Assembly (NCBI RefSeq): GCF_003334305.1
Contig: NZ_QOWS01000017.1
Direction: 5' to 3' (one strand)
From: Escherichia coli
GTDB lineage: Bacteria > Pseudomonadota > Gammaproteobacteria > Enterobacterales > Enterobacteriaceae
Length of the DNA: 64,000 nucleotides
Shown here: piece by piece, positions 15,140 to 17,241 of the stretch
Layout of the letters: each line of letters begins with the position of its first letter
Position numbering within the stretch: the first letter of the stretch is position 1
The notes under the pieces: model-generated
Told to the model about the DNA's origin: nothing
The model's input: the letters and a program-made list of their open reading frames with translations, nothing else
Databases searched by the model: none
Position numbers and translations under genes: made by a program

Positions 15140-15994
15140 ATGGATGCCCTTAGCCGTTTGTTGATGCTTAACGCTCCACAAGGAACGATCGATAAGAATT
15201 GCGTGTTAGGAAGTGACTGGCAGCTTCCACATGGTGCCGGGGAATTATCGGTTATTCGTTGGCATGCGTTAACGCAAGGAGCGGCGAAGCTGGAAATGCC
15301 GACGGGAGAGATTTTTACATTACGCCCGGGAAATGTGGTCCTGCTACCACAAAATTCAGCTCATCGCCTGAGTCATGTCGATAATGAATCGACCTGTATT
15401 GTCTGCGGCACTCTTCGGTTGCAACATTCGGCGCGTTATTTTTTAACGTCTTTGCCGGAAACGCTGTTTTTAGCACCGGTTAACCACAGCGTGGAATATA
15501 ACTGGCTGAGGGAGGCGATCCCGTTTTTACAACAGGAATCCAGATCGGCGATGCCGGGAGTGGATGCACTGTGTAGCCAGATCTGCGCTACATTCTTTAC
15601 CCTCGCGGTGCGTGAGTGGATTGCACAGGTTAATACTGAGAAAAACATTCTCAGTTTGCTTCTGCATCCACGTCTTGGTGCGGTAATACAGCAAATGCTG
15701 GAAATGCCAGGACACGCCTGGACCGTCGAATCGCTGGCCAGCATCGCTCACATGTCCCGGGCAAGTTTTGCCCAGCTTTTCCGTGATGTTTCCGGAACCA
15801 CGCCGCTGGCTGTATTAACAAAGTTGCGTCTACAAATAGCGGCCCAGATGTTTTCCCGGGAAATGCTCCCTGTTGTGGTGATCGCTGAGTCAGTAGGCTA
15901 TGCCAGTGAATCATCTTTTCACAAGGCGTTTGTCCGCGAGTTTGGTTGTACTCCGGGAGAATATCGGGAAAGGGTCAGACAGCTTGCACCCTGA
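15140..15994 (+). CDS. rclR: RclR (YkgD) AraC-family redox-sensing activator of rclABC
   Basis: 284-aa ORF with a C-terminal AraC helix-turn-helix; divergent from rclA. Confidence 0.9.
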   Translation: MDALSRLLMLNAPQGTIDKNCVLGSDWQLPHGAGELSVIRWHALTQGAAKLEMPTGEIFTLRPGNVVLLPQNSAHRLSHVDNESTCIVCGTLRLQHSARYFLTSLPETLFLAPVNHSVEYNWLREAIPFLQQESRSAMPGVDALCSQICATFFTLAVREWIAQVNTEKNILSLLLHPRLGAVIQQMLEMPGHAWTVESLASIAHMSRASFAQLFRDVSGTTPLAVLTKLRLQIAAQMFSREMLPVVVIAESVGYASESSFHKAFVREFGCTPGEYRERVRQLAP

Positions 15995-16521
15995 ATAAAA
16001 CCGCCAGAAATCAGGGCAAAGATAATCCGCATTCCGGGAGTTGTGAGCCTTTCAACTATTTCTATTTCCAACGGTGGTTTGGGCTTTATATATTTTTTTT
16101 CTGATGGACTCTAGCTCAGTTTTTAAATAAAAATGCAAACTAAATTGCTTCAATTAAATAAAACCCCGACTATTACTTGATACGTGATTATTGTCGGTGA
16201 TTTTTTTGTACACCATCAGTGTATATCTCAATAACCCCTGAATAAGTAGCTCTGAATAGGTATAAGGGATGTAGCCTTTTTAAATGGATTTCTTATGCCA
16301 AAAATGAACGTCGATTTCCCCATAAAATGTGAGCGATGCCGAAAGAAATAAAATTAGTTATTGCATTTGAAGTTTGGATGAAAGATCATCATTTGTCATA
16401 CAAATGAGGGGTGGTATGTTGCTAGCCAATTAAAAAAGAACGCCATATTTATTGATGATTGATCCCCCGGTGGGGGGGAAACATCGGGCATAAATGGGCA
16501 TGAAGTAATGGAGTATTAGTT

Positions 16522-17241
16522 GTGAATGTCAATTTCTTTGTCACCTGTATTGGTGACGCCCTGAAATCAAGAATGGCACGAGACTCCGTGCTGCTACTGG
16601 AAAAACTCGGCTGTCGCGTAAATTTCCCGGAGAAACAGGGATGCTGCGGTCAGCCTGCGATCAATAGCGGTTATATCAAAGAAGCGATTCCAGGGATGAA
16701 AAATCTGATCGCCGCACTGGAGGATAACGACGATCCCATTATTTCACCGGCTGGCTCTTGCACCTATGCCGTAAAAAGTTACCCGACGTATCTGGCGGAT
16801 GAACCTGAATGGGCATCACGTGCCGAAAAGGTTGCCGCGCGTATGCAGGATCTCACCTCTTTTATTGTTAATAAATTAGGGGTAGTCGATGTAGGTGCCA
16901 GTTTGCAAGGGAGAGCTGTGTATCACCCATCTTGTAGCCTGGCCCGTAAGCTGGGAGTGAAGGACGAGCCACTTACGCTGCTGAAAAATGTGCGTGGACT
17001 GGAGCTGTTGACCTTTGCTGAACAGGATACCTGCTGCGGATTTGGCGGCACGTTCTCGGTCAAAATGGCCGAAATATCCGGCGAGATGGTGAAAGAAAAG
17101 GTTGTGCACCTGATGGAAGTCCGCCCTGAGTATTTAATTGGTGCTGACGTGAGTTGCCTGCTGAACATCAGTGGGCGATTACAACGGGAAGGGCAGAAAG
17201 TCAAAGTGATGCATATTGCTGAAGTGTTGATGAGCCGCTGA
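16522..17241 (+). CDS. ykgE: YkgE (LutA-like) cysteine-rich Fe-S oxidoreductase subunit
   Basis: Two CCG motifs (QGCCGQP, DTCCGFGG); GTG start with a GGAG ribosome-binding site 7 nt upstream; first gene of ykgEFG. Confidence 0.85.
   Translation: MNVNFFVTCIGDALKSRMARDSVLLLEKLGCRVNFPEKQGCCGQPAINSGYIKEAIPGMKNLIAALEDNDDPIISPAGSCTYAVKSYPTYLADEPEWASRAEKVAARMQDLTSFIVNKLGVVDVGASLQGRAVYHPSCSLARKLGVKDEPLTLLKNVRGLELLTFAEQDTCCGFGGTFSVKMAEISGEMVKEKVVHLMEVRPEYLIGADVSCLLNISGRLQREGQKVKVMHIAEVLMSR

Follow-up and report, generated by a model that had tools for sequence, protein, structure and literature searches.

Homopolymeric contingency tracts, which cause phase variation by slipped-strand mispairing, include the poly-G and poly-C tracts of Neisseria, Haemophilus and Campylobacter. 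The DNA upstream of ykgE in Escherichia coli is similar to these systems in that a G:C run lies beside the start of a gene and in that recurrent +1/-1 variants are found on identical haplotypes. It differs in several respects: the ykgE run has only seven nucleotides, which is short for a contingency tract; neither the promoter spacer nor an annotated ORF contains it; a single length accounts for 94-99.8% of the genomes, depending on the allele; the length of the tract is without effect on the predicted fold, and much of its variation tracks assembly quality.

The second group of described systems consists of the stabilising or insulating stem-loops in enterobacterial mRNA leaders, among them the RNase III-processed ones of pnp and adhE. 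Like these, ykgE has a GC-rich stem, a loop that was probably of the GNRA type in its ancestral form and a longer imperfect helix, all predicted to lie within a long leader, just 5' of the ribosome-binding site, which is left free, and conserved within the genus. It differs from a 5' protector of the ompA type in its position, at about +50 to +106 and not at the extreme 5' end of the transcript. Any likeness to an RNase III substrate would be one of length only (about 23 bp), and a search for ykgE together with RNase III had no match in the searchable literature. Finally, control of lutABC and ykgEFG operons by GntR-family regulators of the LutR/YieP type is a known regulatory layer, and the YieP operator of ykgE is just 60 nt upstream of the sequence studied here; however, this sequence is separate from the operator, contains no YieP motif and has no tie to lactate or to YieP.

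The window, i.e. the whole stretch of 64,000 nucleotides that was analysed, is from a K-12-like E. coli, and the 121 bases around the hairpin are 100% identical to MG1655. The gene rclR ends at position 15994 and is followed by an intergenic region of 527 bp with a GC content of 36% (window: 49%), in agreement with the 527-bp AT-rich region described in the initial annotation. The C5/G7 hairpin reported there is present in exactly this sequence, within the stretch tgatCCCCCggtGGGGGGGaaac, and the last G of its run is 44 nt away from the GTG start codon of ykgE at 16522, close to the distance of about 45 bp that had been given:

16464 to 16478, forward strand: reported hairpin, with C5 at 16464-16468, the loop GGT(GG) with GGT at 16469-16471, and G7 at 16472-16478
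16472 to 16478, forward strand: G7 homopolymer, two Gs longer than the C5 arm needs; basis of the length census, the error control and the haplotype check
16522 to 17241, forward strand: ykgE, encoding a LutA-type Fe-S subunit, first gene of ykgEFG (RefSeq WP_001102108.1)

G7 is the longest run of G or C in the 64-kb window, and the only other runs of at least six are two of G6. There is a single occurrence of CCCCC-N3-6-GGGGG in the window (expected: 0.10), and at least one match was found in 9 of 100 shuffled windows. The 21-nt hairpin has a predicted folding energy of -12.6 kcal/mol (z = -1.3), and the 91-nt stretch around it has a z of -1.0. Judged by composition alone, the small hairpin is thus not significant: it is unusual but not extraordinary. 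A repeat of the REP/BIME type is unsupported, as the C5/G7 sequence is found at a median of one place per genome and as a single copy in the window.

The ykgE promoter is among those dissected by Reg-Seq (PMC7567609), and the indices of that study can be placed on the window by the YieP logo (indices 80-94; index 80 is 16391), such that index i is position 16311 + i of the window. The resulting elements are:

16361 to 16366, forward strand: -35 element of the ykgE promoter, TTGCAT (Reg-Seq footprint at indices 48-56, strongest in the yieP deletion; PMC7567609 supplementary file 4)
16384 to 16389, forward strand: -10 element, GATCAT in the K-12 type (Reg-Seq footprint at indices 72-78, 'RNAP = 74'; PMC7567609 supplementary file 5)
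16391 to 16405, forward strand: YieP operator ATTTGTCATACAAAT (Reg-Seq energy matrix and logo, mass spectrometry and yieP knockout; PMC7567609)
16396 to 16521, forward strand: putative 5' leader of ykgEFG, about 126 nt with 42% GC, from the promoter position and the ykgE start
16510 to 16513, forward strand: Shine-Dalgarno sequence GGAG of ykgE, 9 nt past the end of the stem-loop described below and unpaired by it

The -35 and -10 elements are separated by a spacer of 17 bp, and in most other strains the -10 element is GATTAT, because of a C/T polymorphism at 16387. Since the footprints place these two elements at 16361-16366 and 16384-16389, we infer, from the -10 element and a footprint that is itself reporter-based, that transcription of ykgEFG starts near 16396, within the YieP operator. 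This position fits the description by the Reg-Seq authors of a repressor site just 3' of the RNA polymerase site. With a start near 16396, the hairpin would be located at about +69 to +83 of the leader of about 126 nt. The location in the leader that the initial annotation had suggested is therefore upheld by the footprints of both RNA polymerase and YieP, which would put 16464-16478 inside the transcript. The Reg-Seq zero position 321511 (about 16426 of the window) is a computational prediction only (PMC7567609). The second promoter predicted for this 'presumed TSS' (TTGTCA-16-TATGTT, 16393-16420) was rejected, as it has no footprint in the yieP-deletion data. Likewise rejected was a sigma-54-like GG-N10-GC, spotted by eye at 16476-16489, which is a poor match to TGGCAC-N5-TTGCA, with the Reg-Seq polymerase site being elsewhere.

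The YieP motif obtained by ChIP-exo is atTTGTaTGAcaAAT, and ykgEFG is derepressed about 10-fold in a yieP deletion, as measured by RNA-seq (PMC7642389). Reg-Seq in addition identified a site for the activator FNR at about 16324-16346 (PMC7567609). YkgEFG is a respiratory L-lactate dehydrogenase that is important under anaerobic nitrate conditions (PMC9701030), and activation by FNR fits this phenotype. On the hairpin, Reg-Seq is uninformative: the construct ends at 16470 (+75), which leaves the C5 arm in and the G7 arm out, and the positions of the C5 arm carry no information in a library (PMC7567609) that lacks its pairing partner.

When the leader is folded, the C5/G7 hairpin becomes the apical stem of a larger predicted structure with three tiers:

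16445 to 16501, forward strand: imperfect leader stem-loop of about 57 nt, with an outer helix (16445-16453 with 16493-16501), a middle helix (16455-16463 with 16483-16491) and an apical helix (16464-16468 with the G run)

For the K-12 sequence, the fold of the 67 nt from 16440 to 16506 has an energy of -24.2 kcal/mol (z = -2.1), and it is this larger context alone, not the small hairpin, that stands out from its composition. In the fold of the full leader the main register of the hairpin has a pairing probability of about 0.6. The reverse strand of the stem-loop folds about equally (-22.3 kcal/mol, z = -3.1); with both strands folding alike, that the structure belongs to the RNA, and to this strand, is predicted and not proven. 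A search of Rfam 15 (E ≤ 10) returned four matches at chance level (E = 1.4 to 4.6), none of them over 16440-16510.

Our preferred reading, to which we give about an even chance, is that C5/G7 forms the apex of this stem-loop of about 57 nt and that the stem-loop is a passive structural element of the ykgEFG leader RNA and not a genetic switch. The structure would lie within the leader of about 126 nt of an mRNA for an L-lactate dehydrogenase of the lutABC type, 3' of a promoter that is repressed by YieP and activated by FNR, and it would end 9 nt before the ribosome-binding site. Its most likely role would be to keep the AU-rich leader folded on itself while leaving the Shine-Dalgarno sequence free; it may also retard decay in the 5'-to-3' direction or act as a processing site. 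The gain or loss of one or two Gs would alter only the size of the loop or the register of the stem, and ykgEFG expression is expected to be affected modestly and constitutively.

Other lineages of the genus provide a comparison. A YkgE-based scan of the genome collection identified three further Escherichia lineages, L010 (Escherichia sp. E1V33), L011 (E. whittamii) and L012. They are about 79% identical to E. coli over 150 bp that span the leader, yet all three helices are kept, and their 60-nt leaders have z values of -4.0 to -4.3. The apical helix at this site has the forms ACCCC-GGAA-GGGG, AACCC-GGAA-GGGG or AACCC-AGAA-GGGGG, with arms of C3-5 and G4-6 across the three lineages; the loop is GGAA in L010 and L011 and AGAA in L012 (CCC-AGAA-GGG). 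It is flanked by the arms ATG(T/C)CTGAT...ATC(A/G)GGCAT and an outer AU helix. Within E. coli, the second widespread allele (allele B) is CCCCC-GGAA-GGGGGG. Together, the sequences of allele B, L010 and L011 point to CCCCC-GGAA-GGGGG with a GNRA-type tetraloop as the probable ancestral form. The K-12 allele with GGT and G7 differs from the GGAA form by a change of AA to TG, which extends G6 to G7. A search for more divergent Escherichia leaders in the E. coli genome collection and among exact YkgE protein matches yielded no further hairpin variants.

Outside Escherichia, the sequence of the stem-loop is not conserved. Most Citrobacter leaders have an unrelated perfect palindrome instead, GCTTGATATCGCGATATCAAGC, which ends at the homologous position and of which the stem is kept while the loop is variable; at this position, genomes of the C. 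gillenii type have a GC hairpin with TTTT directly after it. As far as these sequences indicate, a GC-rich palindrome about 30-55 nt 5' of the start codon recurs, while its sequence turns over.

An alignment of nine distinct Escherichia sequences was analysed with RNAalifold, which independently recovered the same three helices. With the structure as specified above, 89% of the alignment cells pair, in comparison to 39-50% after shifting the 3' partners by one to three columns. Substitutions within the stem-loop are mostly one-sided, via G-U, and there are seven extra pair types. In one or two pairs both partners are altered, with C-G replaced by A-U at the foot of the apical stem and A-U replaced by G-C outside this stem. 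The shuffle control for covariation is weak, with 280 of 500 shuffles reaching the observed number of double changes, and the alignment effectively represents four lineages; from these sequences, covariation support for the stem-loop is suggestive, not decisive.

These same data have to be weighed against the possibility that the palindrome has no function at all, being a neutral GC palindrome in a poorly constrained intergenic region with a fold that is kept merely through the close kinship of the Escherichia lineages. We regard this as a real but less likely alternative. It would account for the modest z values of the K-12 sequence (-1.0 to -2.1), for the C5-N-G5 pattern turning up in the shuffled windows as reported above and for covariation that does not reach significance. 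Alleles that break pairs are also common (the O157 type, L006 and L007), with two of the changes being located in the middle helix (C16489A in O157, A16462C in L006); one strain has an IS1 insertion that cuts the structure, and in Citrobacter the sequence is replaced outright. What neutrality explains less readily is the retention of all three helices at z values of about -4 in sister lineages as diverged as L010 to L012, the drop in pairing in the slid registers, and the presence of a different GC palindrome at an equal distance from the start codon in different genera. On balance, the stem-loop is most plausibly an ordinary leader structure with a stabilising or insulating role, or else functionless; it is undescribed, but an example of a familiar kind of feature.

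The initial annotation had also proposed that the G tract may vary in length by slipped-strand mispairing, and had suggested comparing it between strains. If so, the tract would be a phase-variable contingency tract, with slippage in G7 reversibly altering ykgEFG expression. Using exact 60-nt probes that included a 36-nt flank, we counted tract lengths across 5,426 complete genomes of E. coli:

K-12 type (CCCCCGGT-Gn-AAAC), G7: 2,597 genomes, 94.0% of 2,763 K-12-type alleles
K-12 type, G6: 141 genomes (133 exact), 5.1% of 2,763
K-12 type, G5: 19 genomes, 0.7% of 2,763
K-12 type, G8: 5-6 genomes, 0.2% of 2,763
Allele B (CCCCCGGAA-Gn-AACC), G6: 1,070 genomes, 99.8%
Allele B, G5: 2 genomes
Allele B, G7: 0 genomes

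The O157 lineage is fixed for CCCCGGGT-G6. A pattern scan of metagenomes found the standard length in 12 of 12 contigs, a sample too small for rare lengths.

Some of these data speak for slippage. Four lengths exist, from G5 to G8, and an inspection of the flanking sequences showed that G6, G7 and G8 share one identical haplotype and G6 and G7 share a second; the changes in length are therefore recurrent and not inherited. The share of artefacts was gauged with a control tract: a C7 run within the essential gene tsaC, in which C6 is a frameshift. C6 was present in 68 of 5,424 genomes (1.25%). The 60 tsaC-frameshift assemblies that were listed included 9 of the 19 G5 genomes (about 0.2 expected by chance) and 3 of the 60 G6 genomes listed (about 0.7 expected by chance). 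Because nearly half of the G5 genomes carry this 'shortened' C7 tract as well, part of the variation in tract length is assembly error, and the G5 class appears to consist mostly of homopolymer compression in error-prone long-read assemblies. The G6 class of the K-12 type is about four times as frequent as the control frameshift, which suggests that some of the -1 alleles are real; the class probably includes errors as well as genuine -1 mutations that are tolerated. The G6 assembly NZ_CP025268.1, labelled K-12 MG1655, was rejected as a test of sequencing error, as it is 1-2% divergent from the window and not K-12 at this locus.

A broad spectrum of lengths, in any case, is absent: within each of the two alleles the tract is nearly fixed, and its rare lengths are enriched in assemblies with the tsaC frameshift. 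The tract at 16472-16478 is also in no position to act on the spacing of the promoter elements or on an annotated reading frame. Moreover, G5, G6, G7 and G8, allele B and the O157 allele are all predicted to fold into one architecture, with energies between -22.1 and -25.2 kcal/mol; the fold is insensitive to the length of the tract because the G run exceeds the C run by two bases. Thus, of the initial reading of the hairpin, its existence stands and so, by way of the Reg-Seq footprints, does its place in the transcribed leader, while the proposed variation by slippage fell to the tract census and the tsaC control, with a near-invariant length and no contingency pattern. A slippage switch at the G tract is not supported and largely refuted, and we consider phase variation of ykgEFG by this route most unlikely.

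Tract length could matter if the stem-loop contained a translated reading frame. A speculative candidate was found:

16455 to 16493, forward strand: candidate leader ORF of 12 codons, ATG to TAA, MIDPPVGGKHRA; the ATG is kept and the frame depends on the tract length

In this ORF, the C5 run encodes Pro-Pro and the G7 run Gly-Gly. If the ORF were translated from the ATG at 16455 to the TAA at 16493, tract length would set both frame and stop and would alter translational coupling to ykgE: the stop codon would be 28 nt upstream of the ykgE GTG with G7, 18 nt with G6 and 2 nt with either G5 or G8. Rare slippage would then turn translation through the hairpin into a heritable dial on the translational coupling of ykgEFG. 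There are several observations in line with this: every Escherichia sequence has the ATG; the N-terminal motif M-x-D-x-P-(E/V)-G is shared by the nine, except that L006 has Ala in place of Asp and O157 has Arg in place of the Pro; two changes at third codon positions are silent; L007 has a pair of +1 and -1 indels that restores both the frame and the TAA; and the A-G7 and B-G6 alleles have the same frame and stop. Against this, no Shine-Dalgarno sequence precedes the ATG, which is moreover predicted to be paired within the middle helix; conservation does not extend to the C-terminal half, and L010, L011, O157 and the G6 alleles are in a different frame. Such ORFs are expected by chance from a GC-rich stretch flanked by AT-rich DNA; this one has no RefSeq annotation, and the peptide is absent from the searchable literature. 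We consider translation of the ORF with a frame set by the tract very unlikely, and the heritable dial equally so. In a tamer version of this idea, the 57-nt stem-loop could serve the lutABC leaders of Escherichia as a cis-regulatory RNA of an undescribed kind.

The G run might also pair with itself rather than with the C run, as the sequence of K-12 contains a G-quadruplex motif:

16472 to 16498, forward strand: G-quadruplex motif GGG-G-GGG-N7-GGG-N7-GGG, read from the sequence; needs G7 or longer

G7 and two downstream GGG would here form an RNA quadruplex of three tetrads that modulates translation, and the stretch is indeed an exact fit to G3-N1-G3-N7-G3-N7-G3. However, at least seven Gs are needed, and the 1,070 allele-B genomes, the O157 type and the sister species accordingly lack the motif. 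ViennaRNA predicts -5.2 kcal/mol for the quadruplex, compared to -12.6 for the hairpin and -24.2 for the stem-loop, and no link between ykgE and a quadruplex was found in the searchable literature; the probability of a functional quadruplex appears to be close to nil.

Intrinsic terminators and attenuators are, like the ykgE structure, short GC-rich stem-loops in leaders, and the C. gillenii-type leader has its hairpin with TTTT at this site. In E. coli, however, the ykgE stem is followed by AAACAUCGGG and there is no U-tract; a terminator or attenuator was rejected on the grounds that the stem has no U-tract on either strand (the tail after the stem is AAACAUCG on the forward and AUCAAUCA on the reverse strand) and that it was not flagged by a terminator scan.

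The equal folding of the reverse strand implies that the symmetry is present in the DNA and raises the question of whether the palindrome is a protein binding site at the DNA level, for example a second operator 3' of the transcription start, or the remnant of one. The outer arms ATGATTGAT and ATCGGGCAT are like the arms of the Citrobacter palindrome and have the same end position, and the C5/G7 repeat could accordingly be an insertion into an older palindrome of the TTGAT...ATCAA type that is still seen in Citrobacter. Several data disagree with such a site. Reg-Seq is flat at indices 115-159 (16426-16470), with arabinose or in the yieP deletion (PMC7567609), and YieP ChIP-exo returned the upstream palindrome only (PMC7642389). 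In E. coli the arms are 19 bp apart, too far for the usual dimer site, and the many G-U pairs of the stem are C-A on the other strand, which does not make a DNA palindrome. A DNA-level site or its remnant is hence unlikely in our view, and a stem-loop of the leader RNA is the reading we retain.

The hairpin by itself is of little importance. The operon that it precedes is a poorly understood and tightly repressed L-lactate dehydrogenase operon that is relevant in anaerobic nitrate respiration, and through Reg-Seq its promoter now serves as a model of quantitative promoter dissection. Two practical points can be made. About 1% of 'complete' E. coli assemblies compress G:C runs of 7 nt, so that a polymorphism of tract length in public assemblies should be checked against a coding tract before phase variation is concluded from it. 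Furthermore, Reg-Seq and the reporters derived from it truncate the leader at +75, halfway through a conserved stem-loop, which is useful to know for the modelling of ykgE expression and for comparisons between strains.

A perfect 22-nt palindrome, GCTTGATATCGCGATATCAAGC, is found in the ykgE leaders of six Citrobacter loci (L013, L014, L018, L019, L049 and L069; L-numbers denote loci fetched from other genomes), at roughly -55 to -33 relative to the start of ykgE, in the exact place of the E. coli C5/G7 stem-loop. The stem of this palindrome is constant and its loop is variable. Genomes of the C. gillenii type (L015, L017) have a terminator-like arrangement, CCGGGCGGC-GATGT-GCCGCCGG followed by TTTT. 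The position of the palindrome is conserved between the Citrobacter and E. coli leaders, but its sequence has been turned over.

In Photobacterium and Vibrio (L050-L063, L070 and L075) a short hairpin stands immediately 5' of the Shine-Dalgarno sequence, approximately 5-20 nt before the start of the ykgE homologue, and its variants show compensating changes (ACGGGTAAACCGT, GCGGTATCCGC, GGCGGTAACCCGCC, GGCGGATCACCGTC). The gene upstream of the lutA homologue in these organisms is apparently a permease, and the hairpin is possibly a conserved intercistronic structure between the two genes.

The E. coli leader has a second tiny ORF, for which no obvious Shine-Dalgarno sequence was found:

16404-16433: second tiny leader ORF, ATGAGGGGTGGTATGTTGCTAGCCAATTAA, encoding MRGGMLLAN*, directly after the YieP operator

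Insertion sequences are present near the leader in two strains. In DX6 (L009, 1-1500), an IS1 element lies immediately 5' of a junction at window position ~16485, and the insertion has cost the leader stem-loop its 5' half, along with the ykgE promoter and the YieP site. Strain 1008S13 (L105, 1-219), which is also among the rare genomes with a G8 tract, has the IS5-like ISKpn26 in place of rclR, on the upstream side of the intergenic region. The leader and the start of ykgE were also found on nine plasmid records, which fits the existence of second ykgEFG copies on plasmids, like that on pFec10 (PMC7984374).

A coding homopolymer served as control for the census of G-tract lengths:

3417311-3417317 of MG1655 NZ_CP169634.1 (17312-17318 of L107): C7 run of tsaC

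This essential gene carries a -1 frameshift in the C7 run in 68 of 5,424 'complete' RefSeq E. coli genomes; these genomes group by sequencing project, which marks them as homopolymer-compressed assemblies. The low-complexity filter of BLAST masked G7 and G8 and left G6 unmasked, and probes with the run in every 28-mer returned 'No match' despite the exact sequence being present in 2,597 genomes. NZ_CP025268.1 (L094), labelled K-12 MG1655, diverges from the window by 1-2% across ~30 kb, with parts of the window missing, indicating that this locus is, contrary to the label, not that of K-12 MG1655.

In the K-12 type, the ykgE promoter has GATCAT as its -10 hexamer (16384-16389), with a Dam GATC site inside. 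A T at position 16387, present in 16 of the 18 other E. coli leaders sampled, gives GATTAT, which is nearer to the consensus; O157 has GACTAT. Expression of ykgEFG is reported to differ among the strains K-12, W and BL21 (PMC7642389), and the polymorphism at 16387 may contribute to between-strain differences of this kind.
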